DNA from: Candidatus Spongiisociaceae bacterium
GTDB lineage: Bacteria; Actinomycetota; Acidimicrobiia; Spongiisociales; Spongiisociaceae
Assembly: GCA_965202665.1 (NCBI GenBank)
Contig: OZ241841.1
Coordinates: 1,248,001-1,312,000 of the forward strand
Direction: 5' to 3'
Length of the DNA stretch: 64,000 nucleotides
The stretch's first letter is position 1. Every line of letters begins with the position of its first letter. A program made the translations under genes and the position numbers. Positions 29,231 through 46,495 of the stretch are shown piece by piece. A model generated the notes under the pieces. That model saw only the letters and a list, made by a program, of their open reading frames with translations, was not told where the DNA came from and searched no databases.

Positions 29231-29436
29231 AAAACGGGGGCGGGTTTAGGTTGCGAGGATTTTCGTTCAGAGCGGAGAGGGCGGGCGAGGCTTGGATGCG
29301 TGGTTTTTATGACCTCACGGCAAGCAATCTGGCGGGGGCCAGGAAGATACATATTTCTCGCTTTTGGTGTGAAATGGTGGGGGATAATGCGGTATAGTTG
29401 ACAAAATGTTACATATATATCTCATATAGGAGGGTG

Positions 29437-29655
29437 ATGACTCCCAAGGAAATCGGAACCGAAATACGGCGCCAGCGGCAACGTTTGCGTCTCACCCAGG
29501 AGGATGCGGCCGACTTGGCGGAGGTGAACCGCCGGCTGATATCGGAAGTGGAGCGGGGACTGGCCTCCGTTTCCTTGCGCAACCTGATCGCCGTCTGCGA
29601 TGCGGTGGGGTTGGAACTTGCCTGCCGTCCCCGCCGGCCCGGAAGGCGGCTTTGA
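29437..29655 (+). CDS. hipB: HipB-like XRE antitoxin
   Basis: IGTEIRRQRQRLRLTQEDAADLAEVNRRLISEVERG HTH; AGGAGG RBS; TTGA overlap with hipA. Confidence 0.8.
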   Translation: MTPKEIGTEIRRQRQRLRLTQEDAADLAEVNRRLISEVERGLASVSLRNLIAVCDAVGLELACRPRRPGRRL

Positions 29656-30807
29656 CTTTGGACCCGGCGGAGTTCAAAAGGATGGAGGCGGCGGATGTTT
29701 TCTGCGGCGGCCAACGGGCGGGACAGTTGCGGCGCCGGGAAGAACACATTGAGTTCTCCTACCTCCCCGACTACTTGAGTATGGGGGGGCGGGCGGCGGC
29801 GGTCACCCTCCCCCTGCGGGAAGAACCCTATCGTTCGCCGGGCGGAATGGTTCCCGCCTTCTTCGCCGGGTTGCTGCCGGAAGGGGTGCGCCTGCAGGCG
29901 GTGATAGAAGCCGTCAACACCTCCCCCGACGATGAGTTGTCCCTGTTGCTGGCGGTGGGCGGAGATACGGTGGGGGCGGTGACGGTGGTTCCGGCGGGCG
30001 GGCAACCCCGGGATCCCGCCACGGAACCGGAGGCCGGCCACCCTGCCCGGCGTGCAGGAAAAACTGTCCGACGCCCTCATTTCTTTTCCGGTCAAGGCCG
30101 GAGAGGGACCCGCCATCTTGAAACTGTCCCCGGATCGCTATCCGCAACTGGTGGAAAACGAGGCTTTCTTCCTGAAAATGGCCGAGTCGTGCGGCCTGCG
30201 CGTCCCGCCGCACCGGATAGTGAAAGACCACTCCGGGGCTTCCGGCCTGCTGGTGGAACGGTTCGACCGGCTCCGAACGGCGGGGCGGGTGGTGCGCCTG
30301 CCCCAGGAGGACGCCTGCCAGTTGATCGGGCGGCGGCCGGTTGACAAATACCGTCTTTCCCTGCGGGAGGTGGCCGGAGCGGTGACGGAGGCGGTGGCGG
30401 CCCCGGCGGTCGCCATCCTGGAACTGACATTGTTGACCGCCTTCTCCTATCTGATCGGCAACGGGGATTGCCACGGCAAAAACGTAAGCGTGCGCTGGCT
30501 GCCGGAGGAGCGGATGGCGGAGGTGACCCCGATGTACGACCTGCTGTCCACCGCCCCCTATGGCTTGGACGACCGGCTGGCCCTGCCCATGGACGGACGC
30601 GACAACCGGATATGGGGGAAAGACTTGGTCCGGTTTGCCGAAACCTGGGAGATCCCGGCTCAGCTGGTGCGGCGCAAACTGGAGAACATGTTGCAACGGG
30701 CGGAGCCCTGGCCGGAACGGGTGGGGGAAATCGGGCTTGCCGCCTCCGCTGCGGAGCGGCTGGCCCGGACTATGCGCTCCCGGATGGAGGAACTAAAAAC
30801 CTTTTAG
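29652..30807 (+). pseudogene. hipA: HipA family Ser/Thr kinase toxin, frameshifted near 30030-30045
   Basis: N-domain (FFAGLLPEG, GGDTVGAV) in one frame; kinase core (TLPGVQEK, ILK, NEAFFL, VERFDR, QEDACQ, GNGDCHGKN, PMYDL) in the +1 frame. Confidence 0.75.
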
Positions 30808-35366: not shown

Positions 35367-36341
35367 TTAGGCCTCGGCGGGGGTTTCGCCTTCGGCGGCG
35401 TCCCCCTCCGGGTCGGCCAAACCGCAATCGACCACCGCCTCCGCCGGGTCCTGGCCGCCGAACACCACCCGCTCATAGAAGACCACCGCCGTCAGTTCCT
35501 CCTCGGTCAGGTTGTCGAAGGAGGGCATCTGCCCGCCCGCTCCCACCGGTTTGCCGGTGTCGCCGTAGGTGGTGCGGTTGGCCGCCTCGAAACCGGTGGT
35601 GCCCAGCCGCACCCATTCCAAATGGTCGACGCACATGGAGAAGGTGGACAGCACCGCTCCGGCCAAAGCGGGGCCGGTGCCGCCTCCGCCGCCCGCCCCA
35701 TGGCAGGATTCGCAACTGGAAGCGGCGGCGTATACGGCCTGCCCTTGGCCGACAACCGCTCGGACGTCCACTCCCCCCGCCCCGCCGGCGGCCGCGAATT
35801 CGGAGCCGTCGCAATTCTCCACCTCCCCAGTGAGCCGATCCACCGCCAACTGGCCGCCCTCCCCGCAAGTGGGCCCGCCCGCGAAACTGATCAGGTAGGT
35901 GAGGCCCACCAGCGGCACCACCGCGAACAACAAACCCAGCCAGCGGGGAACGGTCGCCGACACCCTTTCCAGAATTCCGGCGACGGGGGCGGTCACCACC
36001 GCCTCGTAGTCGCCCGCTTCGGCCAAACCCACCCGCTCCGGAGCCGGGGGCCCGGCCGCAACGGCCGCCGCAGCCGGGGCGGGGGCGGCGGGAACGGGGG
36101 CGGCGGACGGGGCCGGGGCGGACTCCGTTGCGGCGGCGGTCTCCTCGGGAGCGGGAGCGGATGGGGCTGGCGCCGACTCCGCCGGAGCGGGGCCGGCGGG
36201 GGCCGGGGCTCCGCCCGCCCACGCCGTCAAAATCTCCTCCACGGTCACCCCGGCGGCGGCCGCCCGGGCGGCGGCGGAACGTTCCACCAGGGATTCGGGG
36301 GCTTCCATAGCGGCCGCGGCGGCGGCCAGCAGTTCGCTCAT
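35367..36341 (-). CDS. membrane-anchored monoheme cytochrome c with conserved N-terminal module and Ala/Pro linker
   Basis: One TM helix, CESCH heme motif, GPAL, distal QMPSF Met; four additional Cys; ATGA overlap with the ccoO-like stop. Confidence 0.85.
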   Translation of the reverse strand: MSELLAAAAAAMEAPESLVERSAAARAAAAGVTVEEILTAWAGGAPAPAGPAPAESAPAPSAPAPEETAAATESAPAPSAAPVPAAPAPAAAAVAAGPPAPERVGLAEAGDYEAVVTAPVAGILERVSATVPRWLGLLFAVVPLVGLTYLISFAGGPTCGEGGQLAVDRLTGEVENCDGSEFAAAGGAGGVDVRAVVGQGQAVYAAASSCESCHGAGGGGGTGPALAGAVLSTFSMCVDHLEWVRLGTTGFEAANRTTYGDTGKPVGAGGQMPSFDNLTEEELTAVVFYERVVFGGQDPAEAVVDCGLADPEGDAAEGETPAEA

Positions 36342-37144
36342 TTCAGCTCCGTCAGATAGGCGGCCAGCGTCTCCAAGTCGCGGGCCGACAGGTAAGCGTA
36401 GGAGGGATGGAGGGCGCCGGGGGCGGCCTCGCCGGGATTAACCAGGAAATTAATTACGCCGGAGGCGGCGAGCGTCCCTTCCTCGGCCCCGTAACCGGGA
36501 CGGGCCCCCACTTTGGACAGGTCGGGCCCCAAGCGGCGAATCCCGAAACTGGCGTTTTTCAGGGAATCGGAGTAGGTCTCAGTCGCCGGACCCAGCCCTA
36601 CGTCGGCCAGCACCGGACGCACCAGCTGGGTGTGGCAGTACCAACATCCTTCCCGCAGATAGACGTCCCGTCCCGCCTCCGCCGCGCCGCTCAACACCGG
36701 ATCCCCCACCAAGTGGGTGAAGTCGCCTCCGGTGCGGGCCGGGATGGCCATGGCGACGATCACCGCCGTGGCAAACAAACCCAAAACCGCCAGCCAGACG
36801 GCCAACGGGCGGAAAGGCCGTCCCTCCAAGATGGGGGTGGCCCGGCGGCGGGCGGCCGGAGCGGGAGCGGCCGCCGGAGCGGACACGGCGACGGGCGCAG
36901 GAGGGGCGGGGGCGGCCGGGGCGGGAGCGGGGGAGGTGGCGGGTTCGGCGGACGGGGGCGGGGCGGAAACTTCTTTGGCGGGGGGGGCCGGGGCGGCGGC
37001 GGGCATGGGAGCGTCACCCGCCCAGGCCGCCAACACCTCCTCCGTGGTGGAACCGGCGGCGGCCGCCCGGGCCGCGGCCGAGCGTTCCACCAGATGCTCG
37101 GGAGCTTCCAGCGCGGCGGCCGCGGCCGCCAAACGATCACTCAT
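36338..37144 (-). CDS. cbb3-type oxidase subunit II (CcoO/FixO)-like cytochrome c, axial Met replaced by His
   Basis: GRDVYLREGCWYCHTQLVRP, RRLGPDLSKVGAR, NP...PGALHPSY. Start at MSDRLAAA (37144), not the 37480 ORF start. Confidence 0.85.
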   Translation of the reverse strand: MSDRLAAAAAALEAPEHLVERSAAARAAAAGSTTEEVLAAWAGDAPMPAAAPAPPAKEVSAPPPSAEPATSPAPAPAAPAPPAPVAVSAPAAAPAPAARRRATPILEGRPFRPLAVWLAVLGLFATAVIVAMAIPARTGGDFTHLVGDPVLSGAAEAGRDVYLREGCWYCHTQLVRPVLADVGLGPATETYSDSLKNASFGIRRLGPDLSKVGARPGYGAEEGTLAASGVINFLVNPGEAAPGALHPSYAYLSARDLETLAAYLTELK

Positions 37145-37484
37145 CCCCGCCTCCCCCGGCCCCGCCGCGTAGCCGGGACTCTGAGATAAACGGACGCCGC
37201 CGACCCGCCCTCGCAAAAGTTCTGCGCCGCCCGCCCCGGAAACCGCAACCGCCGAAACGTCGCTCACCCCCCGCCGCCCCGCTGTCACACCCAACACGGC
37301 CAACGCCCCCGCCGGATGCGGCACGGCACCGATGCCGCGCAACGCACGCACCGACAACCCGGCCCCCGGCGACCGGTCCCCGGCGACCGCCTCGCGCCGT
37401 CCGGAGCCCGGGAGCGCCCGCCCCGGAAACCGCAGGCGCCGAACGTTGCGCCGGGCTCGCCGCGGCCGCCGACGGATCACTCAT
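37121..37484. repeat. 340-nt duplicated/inserted segment between the ccoN-like and ccoO-like genes (possible coupled 115-aa ORF 37137-37484)
   Basis: CGCGGCCGCC-N4-GATCACTCAT at 37121-37144 and 37461-37484; identical 20-mer CGCCCGCCCCGGAAACCGCA at 37228-37247 and 37415-37434. Confidence 0.55.
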
Positions 37485-38922
37485 TCTCGTTTTCCCCAGC
37501 CGGCGCGTCCGGGGCGCCCACCGCCGCCAGCACTTCCACCGGGGCCGCCTCCCCCGACATATAGGTTCGCGCCACCGACCACGCCAGCAAGCCCACCCCC
37601 GCCGCCGCGGCGACGGCCGCTCCCGCCGCCAGCGTGTACAAAGGAGAGACCCCGTCCAGAATGCTCCCGAACCCGGCCCCCGCGTTGCGCAACGCCCCGG
37701 CCGCGTTGGCCCAGTTCCAAGACAGGCCGGTCACCAACCCGGCCACTAGCAACAGGCCGCAGGCAACCGCCCCGCCCCACAAAGTCAGGCGCACCCCCGC
37801 CCCCACCGTGCGGGTTGAAAACACTTCCCGGCCGGTCAGCCGGGGAAAAGCGTACAGGACAAACCCCAGGCCCAGCAACGGAACCGCCGCCAGAACCAAG
37901 CCCAGATCCAGCCCCTCCTGCCAAGCGGTCAGGCCCACCGCGGCCGACACCGACCGGAACCCGGACAGCCCGGTCAGCCCGGTGACCGCGGCGTACATCA
38001 TCACCCCCGCCATAGTGGCCAAAAGGGCGGGCCGGGCGCGGGACTCCTCCCAGCCTCCTTGCAAAGTCATCGTCAAATTGACCGCCACCGCCAGGGCGGA
38101 CAATCCCAAACCCATGGCGGCCACCGCCGCCACCGACTCCATCCAAGCGGGGGCGGGACCGCTCATGTAACGGGCCGGGGCGGCCAGCAACCCGGCCCCC
38201 GCCAAAGTCCAAAACCCGGCCCGGGCCAACCCGCCGGAAAACAGGGGGCGTCCGCTGTCGCGGGCCACCGTGAAATAGGCGGCCCCCAAAGCGGCGGCCG
38301 GGAAAGCCACCGTCAGCGCCCCGCCCGAAACCAAGCCGGCCTGCAAGAAAGTTCCGATTCCGGTCAGGCCGGGAAGGGAGCCGGTTACGTACAGGGCCGG
38401 ATACCACCACAGCGCGGCCAGCACGTAGTAGAGGGAAATGTAGGACCCGCTTTCAGTGCGACGGCGCCAGATATCGGCCGCCGACAGGGCCGCGAACAGC
38501 ATGCAGGCGGCCAGCCCCCAGTCGATCACCGGCGGGAATTCGGCGAGCTCCGTCCCGGACGGCCCCCGGAACATGACCAGAACCGACCCCGCCGCAACCA
38601 ACCCGGCGTAGACAAGGCCGTTGAGCAGGGCGGCCCGTTCCCAACGCAAAGGGGCCCCGGTCAGCCGGGGAATCAGATAGTAGGCGGCGGCCTGGGTGAG
38701 GACGCCGCCCGCCCCGTACACCAGCAGGTTGTAAGCGGCGGGGCGCAGGCGGCCGTAGGAAAGAGGAGCGGCGGCGTCGAAGAGGACGGGAACCGCCAGT
38801 TTGATCATCAGCAGGGCGGCCAAAGCGGCCCCCGCCGCTAGGAAAAGGCAGGCGATCAACATCAAACCGGCGGCCGCCCCCGCCGCGCCGATCGGATTGT
38901 CTCTGGCAGTGGCCTGCGTCAA
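37477..38922 (-). CDS. cbb3-type oxidase subunit I (CcoN)-like membrane protein lacking all metal-ligand histidines
   Basis: Colinear with CcoN: SYGRLRP, YYLIPRL, TELAEF, RPLFS..L...FW, NLTMTLQGGW, YAFPRLTGRE; ~12 hydrophobic segments; zero His in 481 aa. Confidence 0.85.
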   Translation of the reverse strand: MTQATARDNPIGAAGAAAGLMLIACLFLAAGAALAALLMIKLAVPVLFDAAAPLSYGRLRPAAYNLLVYGAGGVLTQAAAYYLIPRLTGAPLRWERAALLNGLVYAGLVAAGSVLVMFRGPSGTELAEFPPVIDWGLAACMLFAALSAADIWRRRTESGSYISLYYVLAALWWYPALYVTGSLPGLTGIGTFLQAGLVSGGALTVAFPAAALGAAYFTVARDSGRPLFSGGLARAGFWTLAGAGLLAAPARYMSGPAPAWMESVAAVAAMGLGLSALAVAVNLTMTLQGGWEESRARPALLATMAGVMMYAAVTGLTGLSGFRSVSAAVGLTAWQEGLDLGLVLAAVPLLGLGFVLYAFPRLTGREVFSTRTVGAGVRLTLWGGAVACGLLLVAGLVTGLSWNWANAAGALRNAGAGFGSILDGVSPLYTLAAGAAVAAAAGVGLLAWSVARTYMSGEAAPVEVLAAVGAPDAPAGENENE

Positions 38923-39219: not shown

Positions 39220-39996
39220 ATGCTGCAACGCAAGCTTCGGCAAATAAGCGACCGGGAACGTTCCCGCCTCGGCTGGGCCGTTTTTACGCTGGGCTTGGCC
39301 GCCCTGATCGTCGGCATCTGGTTCAACCATTACTCCAATTTTCCTTCGGTGGAAACGGTGACCATCCCCACCGCCGAAGCGGCCAGCGTGCAGGCGGGCG
39401 ATGTCATCATCTACGATCGGCTACCGCATGTGGTGGACCGCACCCCGGTCATCGACCCCTCCCTGCCGCAGACCACGGTGGATCTGCGAATCGAGGTGGA
39501 CTATTTCGGATGGGTGCCCCGGGACTGCCTGATTGCGGGCGGGGACTGGTGCCTGCCCTGGTCCACCTTGGGACATTTGGTCGCCTTGGGGGGCAGCCAG
39601 CTGATGTTGCTGGGGCTGGTCCTGGCCCTGATCCTCGGACGGCGGATGACTTGGGCTTTGGCCTCCTTCGCCGCGTTTTTGGCAATGCTGGAGCTGGTGA
39701 TCTTGCTGGGCAACGTGGCCTCGGAATGGCTCAACTTGGCCCAAGGCCCGCTCAACTGGACCGAGCAGAACGACGCCTTCGTCATCTGGCCCCCCCTGGT
39801 GCTGGGCAACAACGTGGGGATCAGCTGGGGGGCCATCAAGGACTTTGTTTCCATTAACTACAATATGGGGGTTCTCACCTTTATTATTCTGTTCGCCCGG
39901 TTCGTCCAGAAACTGGGCGGCCCCGCCCCGGCGGAGGAGCCGGCCGAAGAGGCCGTTTCCCCCTACGGGCGGCCGTTGGTCAAAGGAGTCAAGTAG
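39220..39996 (+). CDS. polytopic membrane protein, first gene of the Rieske/cytochrome b operon
   Basis: About 4 TM segments, C-terminal SPYGRPLVKG; its stop abuts the ferredoxin ATG. Confidence 0.75.
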   Translation: MLQRKLRQISDRERSRLGWAVFTLGLAALIVGIWFNHYSNFPSVETVTIPTAEAASVQAGDVIIYDRLPHVVDRTPVIDPSLPQTTVDLRIEVDYFGWVPRDCLIAGGDWCLPWSTLGHLVALGGSQLMLLGLVLALILGRRMTWALASFAAFLAMLELVILLGNVASEWLNLAQGPLNWTEQNDAFVIWPPLVLGNNVGISWGAIKDFVSINYNMGVLTFIILFARFVQKLGGPAPAEEPAEEAVSPYGRPLVKGVK

Positions 39997-40452
39997 ATGG
40001 CCAAAACCCAGGTCTGGTTCGAGACGCCCCCCTTCCGGGACGACTACCAGCTGGCCATGGTGGACGCCGAATATGTGGACAGCCAGGTGCGGCCCAAGCA
40101 GTTCCTGCACATCAACCAGGCGGAATGCATTATCTGCGAGGGGTGCGTGGACATCTGCCCCTGGAAATGCATCCATTACCTTTCGTTGGACGCCATCGAC
40201 GAGGCGCACGGGGTGGAGCACCCGACGGACGGGGCGGACAACATGGGGTTTTTCGTGGTGGACGAATATGAGTGCACCCGTTGCCAACTGTGCATCGACC
40301 GTTGCCCCACCAACGTGATTTCCATCGGCAAATTCGAAGGGTCGGTCACCGACGCCGCCCTCAACGCCGGGTTGATCGACTCGGCGCCGTGGGACATCGA
40401 CACCGGGGCCCGCGATTTCAAAAACGGATACACCTACGGGATGAGATGGTGA
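39997..40452 (+). CDS. 2[4Fe-4S] ferredoxin
   Basis: [12 protein letters not shown] and [12 protein letters not shown]; no signal peptide. Confidence 0.92.
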
Positions 40453-40462
40453 GGAGGTTGAG

Positions 40463-41236
40463 ATGGCGAACGGCGACCGGGTGAGCCTGCGGGAGCGGAT
40501 CGCGTCCGCCGGCGAATCGTTCCGGGCCAGTCCGTTTTGGGAGTCCATGTTCCGGCCCGGTTCCCCTTTCAAGAAAGGTTACAGCGACAGCCCCCGCAAC
40601 CGCTCCTACGTGATAATGAACAACGTGCTCTACCACCTGCATCCGGTGAAGGTGAAGCGGCACGGGGTGCGCCTCTCCTACACGTTGTGCCTGGGAGGGT
40701 TGAGTTTTTTCCTGTTCATTCTGCTCACCATCACCGGCATTTTCCTGATGTTCTATTACCGCCCCACCTCCCCCGCCGCCTACATCGACGTGGAGGCCCT
40801 GTCAACTTCGGTGGCCTTTGGGTCGCTGGTGCGCAATTTGCACCGCTGGGGGGCGCATTTGATGGTGCTGACCGTGTTTCTGCATATGTCGCGCGTGTTC
40901 TACCATGGGGCTTACAAGCCGCCCCGGGAGTTCAACTGGGTGGTGGGGGTGGTGCTGTTGCTGCTCACCTTGTTGCTTTCTTTTACCGGCTATCTGTTGC
41001 CGTGGGATCAGTTGGCGCTGTGGGCGGTGACGGTGGGCACCAACATGGCCGGGTTTACGCCCCTGTTCGGCAACCAGGTCAAATTCGCCTTGCTGGGGGG
41101 GGTGGAGGTGACCGGCAACACCTTGCTCCGCTTCTACGTGTTACATGTGTTGTTCCTGCCGTTCATCATCGTCATTTTCATGGCCGTCCACTTCTGGCGG
41201 GTGCGCAAAGACGGCGGAATTTCGGGGCCGTTATGA
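40463..41236 (+). CDS. cytochrome b N-terminal subunit (cytochrome b6/QcrB-like)
   Basis: LCLGG (heme ci Cys), RNLHRWGAH...[25 protein letters not shown]...VHF, GISGPL end. Confidence 0.93.
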
Positions 41237-41344
41237 ACGGGCTGACCGCTCGTTGCGGCCGACCGGTGAGATTTGGCCGGGGGCCGGGTTTGTTACTCCT
41301 TTCTTCTCCCGGTCCCCGGCCATCCCCAAAACTGGGCGGAGGCG

Positions 41345-42256
41345 ATGGCGGAACTGCCTGAACATCTTCTTATCCGCTCAGCGGAGGCCCGGGCCAAGGC
41401 CCTGGGCCTGCCGGTGGATCAGGTGCTGGCTGAAATGAAAGGCGAAGCCCCGCCCTCAGACCCCCCGCCGGCGGAGGAAGCCCCGCCCTCGGAGGCCCCG
41501 GCGGCCGCTCCGCAGGCGGCGATGGAGAGCGCCCCGGAGGCTGAATCCGTCGCCGGGGAAACCCCGGCCGCGGAAACCCCCGCTCCCTCGGCGGCCGCCG
41601 TCGAGCCGGAGCCGGTCGCGGCGACCGCGGTAGCGGACCCTCCGCCTTCCCCTTCGGCGGAGGCGGGCAACGGGGCGTCGGCGGCTTCGGTGTCGCCCCG
41701 CCCGGTGGTTCCGCCCGCCGAGGTGCCGGAGGGGGTGCGTCCGCAACGTCTCTTGACCGTGGTGAAAGCCCGCGCCATCCAGCAGGTCAAAGCCACCCCC
41801 ACCGACAAGGTGAACACCTGGCCTCATCTGATGATCGCCGAGTTTTCGGCCCTGATGGTGATCACCGCCGGGCTGATAGTGTTGTCGGTGATACTGCAGG
41901 CCCCGTTGCTGGAGTTGGCCAACTTCAACGCCACTCCCAACCCGTCCAAAGCCCCCTGGTATTTCCTCGGTTTGCAGGAACTGCTTTCCTACTACGACCC
42001 GCAGATCGCCGGGGTGATCATTCCCGCCGTCACCGGCCTGGTCGGGTTCATGGCCATCCCCTATGTGGACCGCAACCCGTCCACCAATCCCGCCGACCGC
42101 AAATTCGCCATCATGCTGTTCACCTTGTTTCTGACCGGTTCCGCCACCCTCACCATTATCGGCACCCTGTTCCGCGGACCCGGGTTCAACTTCACCTACC
42201 CGTGGGCGGACGGCATCTGGTTCGATGACTTGAAAGACTGGGTGCATTTCGAATGA
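41345..42256 (+). CDS. cytochrome b C-terminal subunit (subunit IV/PetD-like) with N-terminal module and Ala/Pro linker
   Basis: TWPHL, APLLELAN..TPNPSKAPWYF (Qo PEWY-equivalent), IPYVDRNP; three TM helices; start MAELPEHL behind GGAGG. Confidence 0.9.
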   Translation: MAELPEHLLIRSAEARAKALGLPVDQVLAEMKGEAPPSDPPPAEEAPPSEAPAAAPQAAMESAPEAESVAGETPAAETPAPSAAAVEPEPVAATAVADPPPSPSAEAGNGASAASVSPRPVVPPAEVPEGVRPQRLLTVVKARAIQQVKATPTDKVNTWPHLMIAEFSALMVITAGLIVLSVILQAPLLELANFNATPNPSKAPWYFLGLQELLSYYDPQIAGVIIPAVTGLVGFMAIPYVDRNPSTNPADRKFAIMLFTLFLTGSATLTIIGTLFRGPGFNFTYPWADGIWFDDLKDWVHFE

Positions 42257-43176
42257 CCTCCGTCCAGCTTCTGGTTTTGGCGGTGGCCGCGGTGGCGGTG
42301 GCGGGGGTGCTGGGGGCTTTCGTAATCGCCTACCGGCGCACCACCGGCGCCTCCCCCTCTGAACGCGCCCGCCGCAAAGTGCGGGTGTCGCGGGAAACGC
42401 GCCGGGCGGACCGTTCCCGCTTGGAAGAACCGGTGGCCGTATCGGTCCCGGCCGAGGAGGAACCGGAGGCCGCCCCGGCTGAGGCTGAGTCTGAGGAGGA
42501 CGAGGAGGAGGCTGAAGCCGAGGCCGGGGAGCTGGAACCGGTTGCGGCCGTGGCGGCGGTGGAAGTGGCGGCGGTGGAAGAGTTGTCCCCGGAGGAGGCG
42601 GGCGTGAACCGGCGCCAGTTTTTCACCCGGGCGCTGGGCATCACCTTCGGGGCTTTCCTGGGTTTGAACGGCATCTCCTATCTGGCTTTTCTGTGGCCGC
42701 GCCTGTCGGGGGGGTTCGGTTCCGACATCGACGTGGGCGACATCACCGAACTGCGGGCCGAGGTTTTCCTGTCGGACGGCTCCATCCTGCCCAAGTTCGT
42801 CCCCGAAGCCCGGGCCTACATAGTGCCCTTCGCCGAAACCGATGTTTCCCGCTCCCAGTTCGAAGGTCTGCCGGTGGTAGTGGGGGGCTTGACCGCCCTT
42901 TTTCAGCGGTGCGTGCACCTGGGTTGCCGGGTGCCGTGGTGCGAAACCTCCCAGGGCTTTGAGTGCCCCTGCCACGGTTCCAAATACAACTTCGCGGGCG
43001 AATACGAAGCGGGTCCCGCCCCCCGCAACCTGGACCGGTTCGCTTTGGAAAATCAGGAGGGGCGGCTGATCGTCAAAACGGGGACCATTCTGCAGACTTC
43101 GCGGGCCATCGCCAAGACCGTCCGCTATCCGCAGGGGCCGTCCTGCATCGCCTTGGACGCGGGCACGGAGGCGTGA
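42253..43176 (+). CDS. Rieske [2Fe-2S] subunit of the bc/b6f-type complex
   Basis: CVHLGC and CPCHGSKY boxes, GPAPRNL; internal twin-Arg NRRQF before a TM helix. Confidence 0.93.
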   Translation: MTSVQLLVLAVAAVAVAGVLGAFVIAYRRTTGASPSERARRKVRVSRETRRADRSRLEEPVAVSVPAEEEPEAAPAEAESEEDEEEAEAEAGELEPVAAVAAVEVAAVEELSPEEAGVNRRQFFTRALGITFGAFLGLNGISYLAFLWPRLSGGFGSDIDVGDITELRAEVFLSDGSILPKFVPEARAYIVPFAETDVSRSQFEGLPVVVGGLTALFQRCVHLGCRVPWCETSQGFECPCHGSKYNFAGEYEAGPAPRNLDRFALENQEGRLIVKTGTILQTSRAIAKTVRYPQGPSCIALDAGTEA

Positions 43177-43179
43177 CCG

Positions 43180-44619
43180 GTGGCCACGTTGGTCGTCACC
43201 ATCGTCGCTTTAGGGGCCATCGGTTGGTTCGCCTACCTGGTCGGGTCGGGGTCGCGGCGGGACCGGCGGGATCCGGTTCCGTCCAACCTGTCGGCGGCCG
43301 CCACCGACGACGAACTGGAAACCACCCGCTTGGACCGCACCCTGATGGGGGCGGTGGTGGCGGCCGGGTTCCTCACGTTGGCCATGCCCATCTACTACCT
43401 GAGCGAGTTCGACCGCCAGGAGGGTTTCGTGGAAGAGTTCGCCGAAGCCTCTTTGGATCGGGGGCATGAGGTGTGGGAGGAGTTCGGGTGCGGGGACTGC
43501 CATGGGGCAACCGGGGGGGGCGGGGTGGCCGCCTACCTGGAGGAGCGCTCCAAAGTGAACGTGCCCGGCTGGGCGGCCCCCGCTTTGGACGACATTTTCT
43601 TCCGTTACGACCGGGACGAAGTACGGTTCTGGATCACTTACGGCCGGGCCAACTCTCCCATGCCCGCCTGGGGTTTGGAAGGGGGCGGGGCCCTCAACTC
43701 CCAGCAGATCGACGACCTGCTCAACTACATCGGGGCTTTCCAGATTCCGCAACAAGACGCCCTGCTCAGAATCGAGGGGACGGTGAACGGGGCCCGCAAT
43801 CGGCTGACCGGGGCCTCTGAGGCGGTGGGGCAGCAGATCGCCGACCAGCAGGCCTTGGTGGAGGAAATCACCAACTCCGGGGAAACTTCGGTGGCGGTGA
43901 CCGACATCGCCGACCGGGCCCGGGACGTCTTGGACGGGGCCGGGGACGGGATCGACACCGACGGGGACGGCCTGTCGGACAGGGCCGAATCCGATCTGAC
44001 CGCCATCGGGCGGGAAGCTCTGGAAACCGGTTTCCTGGCGGTGGATACCTCCTTCGATCCCCGCAACGTTGAAACCCTGATCGGGTCTTCGGATTCCCGT
44101 TCCGCCGCCCGCATGGTGAGCGACTTGGAGTCGCGGGCCACCTCTTTGACCATTACCTCCCAGAACCGGGAAGTCCTGCTGGAACAGGCCCGGTTTGGGC
44201 TGTCTTTCTTGGAGGAAGCGGCCGGGGCGGCCCGCTGGGAAGTGGATTTCCAAGAGGTGGCGGACGGATCCTTCGGCGGGGATCGGGAAAGGGCGGAGCG
44301 GGCCGCGGCCCTGTTCAACGGATACTGCGCCCGATGCCACACCGCCGGTTATTCGGCCGGGCCGGCTTTCCAACAGGTGCAGGCGTCCGGGGCGCTGGGG
44401 CCGTCGTTGCGGGCGGGGCGCTCCCGAACGCAGTTCCTGGCAGCGGAGGACATGGCCGAGTTTTTGCAGAAAGGTTCCGTTTCGGGTGAAGGTTACGGGG
44501 TGAACGGGGTGGGTTCGGGGCGGATGCCCGGCTTCGGACAGGTGCTGTCGGGGGAGGACATCGACCTGATCGTGGGATATCTGCGAGGGCCGACTTTGGA
44601 CGGGCGGGAGGATAACTGA
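43180..44619 (+). CDS. membrane-anchored diheme cytochrome c
   Basis: CGDCH...MPAWG and CARCH...MPGFG; two N-terminal TM helices; DTDGDGLSD motif in the inter-heme spacer. Confidence 0.9.
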   Translation: MATLVVTIVALGAIGWFAYLVGSGSRRDRRDPVPSNLSAAATDDELETTRLDRTLMGAVVAAGFLTLAMPIYYLSEFDRQEGFVEEFAEASLDRGHEVWEEFGCGDCHGATGGGGVAAYLEERSKVNVPGWAAPALDDIFFRYDRDEVRFWITYGRANSPMPAWGLEGGGALNSQQIDDLLNYIGAFQIPQQDALLRIEGTVNGARNRLTGASEAVGQQIADQQALVEEITNSGETSVAVTDIADRARDVLDGAGDGIDTDGDGLSDRAESDLTAIGREALETGFLAVDTSFDPRNVETLIGSSDSRSAARMVSDLESRATSLTITSQNREVLLEQARFGLSFLEEAAGAARWEVDFQEVADGSFGGDRERAERAAALFNGYCARCHTAGYSAGPAFQQVQASGALGPSLRAGRSRTQFLAAEDMAEFLQKGSVSGEGYGVNGVGSGRMPGFGQVLSGEDIDLIVGYLRGPTLDGREDN

Positions 44620-44969
44620 TGCGGGAGTTGTTCCGGACGATTCTTTCCCAGAACCTGCTGTTCACCGGGATCGTGTTGACGGCGGCGGCGGTGCTGGTGT
44701 TTTTCGGAACCATATACCTGTTGAACCACACCAACCTGGGCCGCCGGTTGGCGGTGCTGATGCTGGGAGCGGGAATTTTCGGATGGACCACCATCAACTC
44801 CATCCTGTTCGTGCTCTACGCGCCGCGGGGCCCGCGACCGGTGGATTTCGAGGGGTTGAACGCCTTTGAGATCCGGATCATCCCCGGGGCGTTCGCGGCC
44901 GGCTCCGCCATTTTGTTCGCCATGTTCCTAGTGGCCCTGCACCGCTACGAACGGGACCAAGAACGTTAA
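44619..44969 (+). CDS. small membrane protein, last gene of the bc operon
   Basis: Three hydrophobic segments; TGATG overlap with the cytochrome c stop. Confidence 0.75.
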   Translation: MRELFRTILSQNLLFTGIVLTAAAVLVFFGTIYLLNHTNLGRRLAVLMLGAGIFGWTTINSILFVLYAPRGPRPVDFEGLNAFEIRIIPGAFAAGSAILFAMFLVALHRYERDQER

Positions 44970-45324: not shown

Positions 45325-45818
45325 GGCGGACCGATTACTTCCTCATCGCCTCCCCCCGGGAGGACGCCCGGCGGGCGGCGGAACAGGTTCCAGCCCCTTA
45401 TAACGACCTCCAATCTCTGCAAGAGGCTTTGTACGAACTGTGCCTGAACGTGCAACAGTGGGCGGAGGCCCCGGGGTTCATCGCCGTGGAGGAAGATGAC
45501 CTGCATCGCATTATCACCGTCCGCGACGAGGGGGCGGGGATTCCGACCACTATCAGAAAGGCCTTCCCCGCCAACCAGGCGGCGGTGGCCAAAGCCCTAA
45601 GCCCGGGCGAAACCTCGTCCGGCGGGCAACGGCGGAGAAAGGGGCTGGCCGGCGCCATCGGCTTGTCCGCCCGCGGGTTTATCGTCTACCTGGAGACGGA
45701 GGATGTAGCGGCCTGGGCGGAGGGGGGAAACACCATTTTCGCTTACAAAGGCGGTCGGGCGGTGACCGGAACCCGCATACAGATCATCTATCCGACGGAC
45801 CGCCCTCCGTCCGCTTGA
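45321..45818 (+). CDS. stand-alone GHKL/HATPase_c-like ATP-binding domain protein
   Basis: N-box ELCLNV, G1 VRDEGAGI, GETSS...RKGL, terminal GTRIQI. Confidence 0.65.
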   Translation: MRRTDYFLIASPREDARRAAEQVPAPYNDLQSLQEALYELCLNVQQWAEAPGFIAVEEDDLHRIITVRDEGAGIPTTIRKAFPANQAAVAKALSPGETSSGGQRRRKGLAGAIGLSARGFIVYLETEDVAAWAEGGNTIFAYKGGRAVTGTRIQIIYPTDRPPSA

Positions 45819-45859
45819 GCCCGGCGGAGGGGGTTGGAAACGGGCGTAAACTGGGGCGG

Positions 45860-46495
45860 GTGGAGAATTGCCGAGCGTCCAACAACCACCTGCCCGCGGC
45901 GACGGTGGAGCGGTTGCCCCGCTACCTGCGCTTGCTGGAACAGAAACCGGAGGCGCAGGCCACCATTTCCTCCACCGAGCTGGCCGCCGGGGTGGGGATG
46001 AACGCGGCGGGGGTGCGCAAAGACCTGTCCCGCCTCGGCTCCTACGGAAAACCGGGCACCGGCTACTACAAGGAGGAACTGACCGCCGTCATCCGCCGCC
46101 GGCTGGGGCTGACCGAAGACCGGCCGGTGGCGGTGATGGGAGCGGGCAACCTGGGGTCGGCCCTGGCCGGCTACGGCGGGTTCGCCCGGCGCGGTTTTCG
46201 CATCGTCGGCCTGTACGACGCCGCTCCCGGCAAGATCGGAACCGTAATCGGGGGGATAACGGTGCGTCCGGTGGAAGACCTGGCGGTCGACGCGGCCCGC
46301 GTCCCCATCGCGGTGGGGATTATCGCCACTCCGGCCGCAGTAGCCCAGGAAGTGGCCGATTTGCTGGCGGCGGCCGGCGTGTCGTCCATTCTCAACTTCG
46401 CCCCGGCCGCCCTGCAAGTTCCGAGCGGGATACATCTGCGCCAAGTGGATCTGGCCACCGAGTTGCAGATTCTCAGCTACCACCTAGCCGGGTAG
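45860..46495 (+). CDS. rex: redox-sensing transcriptional repressor Rex
   Basis: ATVERLPRYLR, ISSTELA, VRKDLS..GSYG..G.GY, GAGNLGSAL, ILNFAP, VDLA.EL. Start GTG approximate. Confidence 0.93.
   Translation: MENCRASNNHLPAATVERLPRYLRLLEQKPEAQATISSTELAAGVGMNAAGVRKDLSRLGSYGKPGTGYYKEELTAVIRRRLGLTEDRPVAVMGAGNLGSALAGYGGFARRGFRIVGLYDAAPGKIGTVIGGITVRPVEDLAVDAARVPIAVGIIATPAAVAQEVADLLAAAGVSSILNFAPAALQVPSGIHLRQVDLATELQILSYHLAG

Follow-up and report, generated by a model that had tools for sequence, protein, structure and literature searches.

This work concerns a gene of Candidatus Spongiisociaceae bacterium (Actinomycetota; Acidimicrobiia) that lies in a window of 64,000 nucleotides, the whole stretch of DNA analysed (assembly GCA_965202665.1, contig OZ241841.1, positions 1,248,001 to 1,312,000; coordinates given below without a locus name are those of the window). 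The gene encodes CcoN*, a full-length relative of CcoN, the subunit I of cbb3-type (C-family) heme-copper oxidases, in which each of the six histidines that would hold heme b, heme b3 and CuB has been replaced. Taking into account its fold, the loss of these ligands and the purifying selection acting on a gene placed beside those of complex III, CcoN* is likely a structural anchor for c-type cytochromes and probably not an oxygen-reducing enzyme. In its fuller form, which we favour with some reserve from sequence and structural model, CcoN* would be a cofactor-free scaffold holding a CcoO-type cytochrome and a second cytochrome c in an assembly of complex III with the caa3 oxidase.

Homology, fold and loss of the cofactor ligands

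The open reading frame (ORF) is intact, runs on the minus strand from a TTG start (38922→37477) and contains no histidine; alanine and glycine account for 35% of the residues. The gene and the positions of its ligand columns are as follows.

37477..38922, minus strand: CcoN*, 481 residues, predicted fold of a C-family heme-copper oxidase subunit I, with 12 helices, lacking the ligands of heme b, heme b3 and CuB (homology, model and alignment)
38734..38736, minus strand: A63, column of the low-spin heme b ligand H60 (alignment)
38323..38325, minus strand: G200, column of the CuB ligand H207 (alignment)
38170..38193, minus strand: G244 (cross-link tyrosine column) to A250/R251 (CuB histidine-histidine columns) (alignment)
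37903..37911, minus strand: L338 and L340, columns of the heme b3/heme b ligands H345/H347 (alignment)

The initial annotation had read this protein as a CcoN homologue colinear from end to end, and had proposed a profile search and a fold comparison as checks; both came out in its favour. The Pfam family COX1 matches CcoN* with an E value of 8e-26, and the ccoN profile TIGR00780 gives 97 bits, short of its cut-off of 583. The five matches of a PDB sequence search are all cbb3 subunit I. The AlphaFold model, built on an alignment of 36 sequences, shows 12 long helices with a predicted local distance difference test score (pLDDT) of 88, and when it was compared with known structures by Foldseek the top seven matches were cbb3 CcoN, with template modelling (TM) scores of 0.83-0.86 and PDB 9g83 at the head, NorB and ba3/aa3 ranking below. 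A search of the ESM Atlas returned exclusively COX1-named clusters, from Actinomycetota and Verrucomicrobiota. By predicted fold and colinear sequence, CcoN* is a C-family CcoN homologue.

Residue numbers are those of Pseudomonas stutzeri CcoN, and for H207, H257, H258 and W203 they follow PMC3578206. The columns themselves were located with the canonical CcoN of Rhizobium etli as reference. All six histidine ligands are replaced in CcoN* (H60→A63, H207→G200, H257→A250, H258→R251, H345→L338, H347→L340). The cross-link tyrosine is replaced too (Y251→G244), its column holding Ala, Gly, Ser or Trp in orthologues, and further replacements affect W203 (G196), E323 (L316), H337 (G330), T215 (P208) and S240 (A233). 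The motif changes first read by eye, RPLH→RPAA, GPHH→APAR, IGHVH→EGLDL and the tyrosine motif→AGLL, were reproduced in the alignment to the R. etli protein. In the case of QWWYGH→QAGLVS the loss of the ligand holds and the register does not, the histidine standing opposite G200, one residue later than the S199 initially proposed.

An alignment of 103 distinct orthologues, from which one truncated row and one out-group row were removed, extends this loss to the whole clade: 102 of the sequences carry none of the six ligand histidines, and the remaining one carries a single one. The six columns are variable and occupied mostly by aliphatic or small residues, and neither in them nor in their vicinity is any Met, Cys, His or acidic residue conserved. 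Since His, Cys or Met reach 70% in no column of the alignment, no alternative ligand set is conserved, and without ligands the binding of heme b, heme b3 and CuB is not to be expected. It has to be noted that the complete lack of histidine, which the initial annotation had placed in the foreground, is true of this protein and means little as a trait. Orthologues contain 3.7 histidines on average, only the host's own CcoN* among the 103 has none, and histidine is equally absent from three of 32 hydrophobic ORFs of similar size in the same genome. The total lack of histidine is incidental; the loss at the ligand columns is what counts. Counted on 43 less redundant orthologue rows (the 43 rows referred to below), the best-kept residues are Gly, Pro, Trp, Tyr and loop Arg, and no polar core is conserved across the order.

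Selection and persistence of the gene

The gene was found in the host and in 39 of its 40 relatives (40 of 41 genomes), which range from the same genus up to the same order; one of them, G039, is unpublished and enters the count only. The matches of these 39 are free of stops apart from TGA codons at match edges. The six runs, from two studies, that are listed for the locus include none of RNA. The ratio of non-synonymous to synonymous substitution (dN/dS) was obtained by a simple counting method on the 150 of 210 pairs whose proportion of synonymous differences (pS) lay within 0.02-0.6. Compared with the congener, CcoN* has a ratio of 0.21, and with three members of the family one of 0.30-0.35; the median over the 150 pairs is 0.25 and the maximum 0.48. 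Among the neighbouring genes, CcoO (0.21-0.38) and the Rieske protein (0.17-0.27) have similar values, and cytochrome b a far lower one of about 0.05. CcoN* is relaxed relative to the catalytic core, yet clearly under purifying selection, and it is retained even in the 1-Mb streamlined genomes of the class (L123-L125). The suggestion that the gene is selected rather than decaying is upheld by a dN/dS below 1 in all 150 pairs, a preserved fold, a clade-wide loss of the ligands and the absence of internal stops; none of the marks of a pseudogene (stops, frameshifts, a dN/dS near 1) is seen.

Association with complex III and c-type cytochromes

CcoN* is followed by two cytochrome c genes and faces a divergent complex III operon, whose components are listed together with those of the opposite side.

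37145..37476, no strand: spacer separating ccoN* and ccoO, in which the start of ccoO recurs as decayed repeats (sequence comparison)
36338..37144, minus strand: CcoO/FixO-like mono-heme c subunit, 268 residues, with an N-terminal module, a Pro/Ala linker, one transmembrane helix and CWYCH; distal Met→His (profiles and alignment)
35367..36341, minus strand: second membrane-anchored mono-heme cytochrome c with a CcoP-like domain, 324 residues, CESCH, Met ligand kept (profiles and alignment)
39220..39996, plus strand: conserved membrane protein whose gene opens the divergent complex III operon; no family above cut-off (profiles and loci)
39997..40452, plus strand: 2x[4Fe-4S] ferredoxin (profiles and loci)
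40463..41236, plus strand: split (b6-type) cytochrome b (profiles)
41273..42256, plus strand: cytochrome b subunit IV, likely start 41345 (profiles)
42253..43176, plus strand: Rieske iron-sulfur protein (profile matches)
43180..44619, plus strand: membrane-anchored diheme cytochrome c (profile and translation)
44619..44969, plus strand: small conserved membrane protein, last gene of the operon (loci comparison)

The initial annotation, which treated CcoN* by itself, passed over what we regard as the strongest clue, namely the fixed linkage of this gene to ccoO, to the gene of the second cytochrome c and to the operon of complex III. Across the order, cytochrome b is divergent from ccoN* in each of the 18 wider loci, and in 17 of them ccoO and the second cytochrome follow ccoN* downstream, the eighteenth stopping at a contig edge. 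CcoN* and CcoO are moreover fused in L037-L041 and L122. No ccoQ or ccoGHIS gene was seen in the loci read. As side observations, the ferredoxin is a fixed and strongly conserved member of the operon (dN/dS 0.06-0.12), and the complex III genes are followed by a Rex-type redox regulator (45815-46495) and by a nuo operon from 46598.

The CcoO protein passes the FixO profile (49.7 bits, cut-off 29.6), and its CxxCH motif is retained in 57 of 57 CcoO domains; in the second cytochrome c, both CxxCH and the Met ligand are retained in 21 of 21. The second cytochrome, with its His/Met pair kept, is the likelier working carrier, and the heme of CcoO, with its drifting distal ligand, may have a partly structural part to play. 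Only in the genus of the host are ccoN* and ccoO kept apart by tandem duplications of the start of ccoO, now decayed (37145-37476; L042:7895-8281), and the spacer is absent in four family members, in which the two genes abut. A 115-residue ORF across this spacer (37137-37484) was considered as a gene and rejected: it belongs to no family, is missing where the genes abut and is built of decayed repeats.

A module shared by four proteins

The N-terminal module of CcoO, a helical segment of about 45 residues, is shared by other membrane proteins of the same genome, and its carriers, located by profile search, are these.

37007..37144, minus strand: module of about 45 residues, CcoO copy
36204..36341, minus strand: second cytochrome c copy
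41345..41470, plus strand: complex III subunit IV copy
L257:2151-3314 (= G000:C1:1367150-1368313), opposite strand to the caa3 genes: fourth carrier, a 387-residue membrane protein of no family

Among the 33,708 ORFs of the genome the module profile gives exactly four matches at E<=5e-14, the next standing at 0.029. In CcoO, the second cytochrome and subunit IV it precedes a Pro/Ala linker. The module was found in 41 of 41 genomes, in 2 to 7 copies and mostly in four, without a Pfam or NCBIfam match and without a usable match in the ESM Atlas; in some relatives it occurs in tandem, with up to five copies. In 10 of 13 loci the fourth carrier has cox genes as neighbours, and one further locus has coxC but no match to the core of the carrier protein; this 387-residue protein is a candidate accessory subunit.

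Co-occurrence with an intact oxidase

The host genome, a single contig estimated as 94% complete, contains two COX1 matches, CcoN* and one intact A-type subunit I accompanied by caa3 subunits, as well as one FixO match and no bd oxidase; caa3 is its only intact oxidase. In 20 genomes of the order, selected because their ccoN score was weak or absent and not independent of one another on account of their kinship, a new search found seven without any COX1 match or CcoN* and eight with CcoN*, seven of the latter also having an oxidase with an A-type score. In the seven oxidase-less genomes a close orthologue of cytochrome b is missing too (best match 55-58% in four, none in three), and in G165 and G186 the orthologue is found at 78-80%. 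As a side observation, in locus L126 of G050 a single gene run has ccoN* and ccoO with caa3 genes between them: a His-less CcoN fused to a cupredoxin-like domain (L126:8093-10093) is separated from ccoO by coxBAC, subunit IV and ctaG.

Proposed role and alternative explanations

A structural subunit of a complex III-IV supercomplex would display fixed linkage to the genes of complex III and the cytochromes, fusion and joint loss, and all of these are found here. The history may have started from an ancestral assembly of complex III with a cbb3 oxidase, whose catalysis would have become redundant beside an A-type oxidase and been lost, the body of CcoN staying as a building block. At present, CcoN* would anchor two c-type cytochromes on the Rieske/cytochrome b complex by a predicted physical contact, and these would carry electrons from complex III, here presumably towards caa3.

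Several observations weigh against this scaffold. Respiratory genes cluster anyway, so that linkage and co-loss are no independent proof of contact, and the choice and kinship of the 20 genomes limit what their pattern can say; five of them (fragmented, 110-420 contigs) have an A-type oxidase and no CcoN* match. Conversely, G165 (95% complete, in four contigs) encodes CcoN* together with the orthologue of cytochrome b but has no A-type match, only a 681-residue CuA protein that looks NosZ-like by its motifs, and therefore CcoN* tracks complex III more than caa3. The fourth module carrier has no cox neighbours in two of the 13 loci and lies on the strand opposite to the cox genes, and the module gives two weak matches in the oxidase-less G030 and extra matches in some genomes. 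The heme of CcoO normally feeds heme b, which is not expected here, so it could be a dead end; its distal ligand is His in the host's family, Gln or Met in other families, and Gly, Ala, Glu or Val in some other Actinomycetota. The argument from interface residues, which the initial annotation drew from the Arg of SYGRLRP and the ExxE pair, is valid in the host's family, YGRLRP (R60) and TELAE (E125, E128) being present in the host's CcoN*, and fails across the order, where of the 43 rows only 17 retain R57, 11 E122 and 27 E125. Finally, that CcoN* binds no heme or copper and does bind complexes III and IV is something we infer from sequence, model and gene order.

Among other explanations, it is unlikely that the emptied heme pockets bind a quinone or a small ligand, CcoN* then acting as a heme-b-free exchange site between quinone and cytochrome c or as a redox sensor. 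The mostly small residues of the ligand columns could leave cavities, an Arg such as R251 often occupies the H258 column in the host's family, and CcoO keeps its heme throughout, with a distal His in that family; His as distal ligand of heme c would lower its potential. However, polar residues of the core are not conserved order-wide, and the H258 column itself holds Q in 14, R in 12 and other residues in 17 of the 43 rows. It is distinctly unlikely that CcoN*, instead of belonging permanently to the chain, helps as assembly factor or chaperone to build c-type cytochromes or to insert heme and copper into caa3. Several other Actinomycetota have ccoN* directly after ccsA/resB or next to ccm, ctaA/ctaB or ctaG genes, and the cupredoxin-like fusion in G050 would fit such a role, but in the order the gene stands beside structural complex III genes in every one of the 18 loci, fusions with CcoO occur in several families, and CcoN* conserves no heme or metal ligand by which a cofactor could be passed on.

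The initial annotation had left scaffold, channel and transporter side by side; of these, the scaffold accounts best for the data, and it appears quite improbable that the protein has been repurposed to conduct or transport ions or gases. The 12-helix fold is kept and, among the residues that we take to form the C-family proton channel (T215, Y223, S240, Y317), Y223 is present in the host and in 38 of the 43 rows, N/D289 of the same channel region being found in 41. Against this, T215 and S240 are lost in CcoN*, the S240 column is Ala in 34 rows, Y317 is kept in only eight, and in the loci read the gene is always accompanied by cytochromes and never by transport partners. That the protein still reduces oxygen or nitric oxide by means of other ligands is highly improbable. 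Other families exchange single ligands, an Asp replacing His in gNOR and a Met or Lys holding the low-spin heme (PMC11214002), and the CcoO and CcoP-like cytochromes have been retained, but the six columns vary among aliphatic and small residues, and the cross-link tyrosine and W203 are gone. Least tenable of all is a decaying relic without present function. A dN/dS that exceeds the value of cytochrome b five- to ninefold and an identity that falls to about 30% across the order would suit it, whereas the ratio stays well below 1 in each of the pairs and the gene is intact in 39 of 40 relatives and in genomes of 1 Mb.

Repeated origin of ligand-free subunits

A search of 1.84 billion representatives returned many further ligand-poor CcoN sequences; of the 156 rows aligned, 112 have none of the six histidines and 18 have all of them. 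In other Actinomycetota, the genes found close to His-less CcoN* are those of complex III and of cytochrome c maturation; six-His forms, accompanied by a multiheme CcoO and a copper ATPase, occur in a few. A scan with one subgroup gave 80 loci, nearly all from Verrucomicrobiota, most of them with a six-His CcoN and 11 with zero to two histidines; in the mapped loci of this type both the His-less and the six-His kinds close an operon of alternative complex III (ACIII) in the order ccoN-ccoO-cytochrome c. Of the 11 His-less ACIII genomes, ten have a full-length match of 432-455 bits, an A-type score (the two that were read are both intact A-type), and the eleventh has fragments and a match resembling a canonical fused cbb3. 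Among the ACIII genomes with a six-His ccoN, four of 14 lack a match with an A-type score.

In an IQ-TREE phylogeny of 28 rows, the His-less forms of Verrucomicrobiota nest among six-His relatives, apart from the clade of Actinomycetota. A single origin of all His-less CcoN was rejected (p-AU 8e-41 in the approximately unbiased test, for a group that was named after quick trees had been seen and with a query of unusual residue composition). The idea that a His-less CcoN is always paired with an adjacent intact one was likewise discarded, no second CcoN being found within 7 kb in the 80 loci, and none in the host genome.

A parallel case is provided by eight loci of other Acidimicrobiia families, in which a subunit I derived from the A-family and keeping 0-2 of the six histidines stands beside an intact coxA. 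Judging from these sequences, the A-family His-poor subunit I is an independent pseudo-oxidase paired with coxA, and the ligands have been lost at least twice in CcoN and separately in the A-family subunit I. In L241-L247 and L127 (e.g. L241:6945-8615, L127:2832-4517) HPEVY has become QPQVY in this second subunit I, some 4.5 kb away from the intact coxA, and in L127 the A-family pseudo-subunit is followed by a weak COX3-like gene.

Tentatively, and with somewhat less than even confidence, a broader proposal can be put forward: in many bacteria the subunit I of a dead oxidase may link complex III to a working oxidase. Such subunits would have at least three origins: from CcoN with Rieske/cytochrome b in Actinomycetota, from CcoN with ACIII in Verrucomicrobiota, and from A-family CoxA in other Acidimicrobiia. 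In the order of the host the link would be further secured by a private cytoplasmic module of 45 residues, carried by CcoO, by subunit IV, by the second cytochrome and by the caa3-linked membrane protein.

Three further observations were made in passing. G332 encodes a CcoN-like protein with two of six histidines among housekeeping genes and with no cytochrome adjoining (L121:8782-10239). Two Verrucomicrobiota genomes (L249, L255) have a six-His subunit I of unusual type, with GHMSQQ at the CuB helix. Within the window, translations read by eye place a helix-turn-helix gene and split HipA-like genes (29398-30807) between recA and hspR-dnaJ-grpE-dnaK.

Significance

Homologues of CcoN* are named 'cbb3-type cytochrome c oxidase subunit I' in databases (P0019, P0023, P0026, P0032), and cbb3 genes serve as markers of high-affinity, low-oxygen respiration. 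For these Acidimicrobiia such an inference is probably wrong, since none of the 301 genomes sampled from the class (one of them, G265, unpublished and only counted) passes the ccoN cut-off, under which divergent six-His enzymes also score, and the best 30 matches all lack the ligand set. The histidines of the heme-copper scaffold have been called almost invariant, yet the scaffold persists repeatedly with none of them, which points to an undescribed supercomplex architecture. To this picture the present locus adds the association with Rieske/cytochrome b, the module common to several proteins, the pattern of co-loss and the parallel in the A-family.

Comparison with known systems

CcoN* descends from CcoN but, from its sequence, is predicted to fail the tests that define an oxidase. 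A redox-dead subunit kept as structure is already represented by ActF of alternative complex III, a cofactor-free paralogue of ActC; its fold is unrelated to that of CcoN*, and it adjoins its active paralogue, whereas the host has no active CcoN. The two hemes and the non-heme metal with His and acid ligands of a nitric oxide reductase (NOR) are not to be expected in CcoN* either, no ligand being conserved. No published description of a ligand-free CcoN was found in a search that covered neither subscription papers nor supplements (that of PMC11214002 may list some). The ligand-variant heme-copper oxidases (HCOs) treated in that 2024 survey (cNOR, qNOR, eNOR, sNOR, gNOR, nNOR, bNOR and NOD; PMC11214002) resemble CcoN* in having an altered active site on the HCO scaffold, gNOR being presented there as the first member with one active-site histidine replaced. 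They keep, however, both hemes and the metal site, whereas all six histidines are replaced in the CcoN* family.

With the CcoN/FixN of cbb3 oxidases (PDB 3mk7, 8smr, 6xkw, 9g83, 9g6b) CcoN* shares fold, colinearity, the gene order ccoN-ccoO-cytochrome c and the occurrence of CcoN-CcoO fusions; unlike CcoN*, these proteins have the six histidines, the cross-link tyrosine, W203, E323 and H337, and their CcoO has a distal Met where the host has His. In the bc1-cbb3 supercomplex of Pseudomonas aeruginosa, CcoN, CcoO and CcoP touch cytochrome c1 (PMC10556555), and PDB 9g83, by its title a CI-CIII2-CIV2-cbb3 supercomplex, places cbb3 beside a second oxidase. In both, cbb3 subunits are joined to complex III as an active oxidase, whereas CcoN* is predicted to be redox-dead and its contact with complex III is a presumed one; complex III is here composed of a split cytochrome b with a ferredoxin and a diheme c. 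The obligate III2IV2 (bcc-aa3) supercomplex of actinobacteria is like the host in phylum, in its anchored diheme c, in having no soluble cytochrome c link and in its accessory subunits, among which the consulted portion of PMC8361435 describes no CcoN-like one; the host, for its part, has caa3 and two further mono-heme cytochromes.

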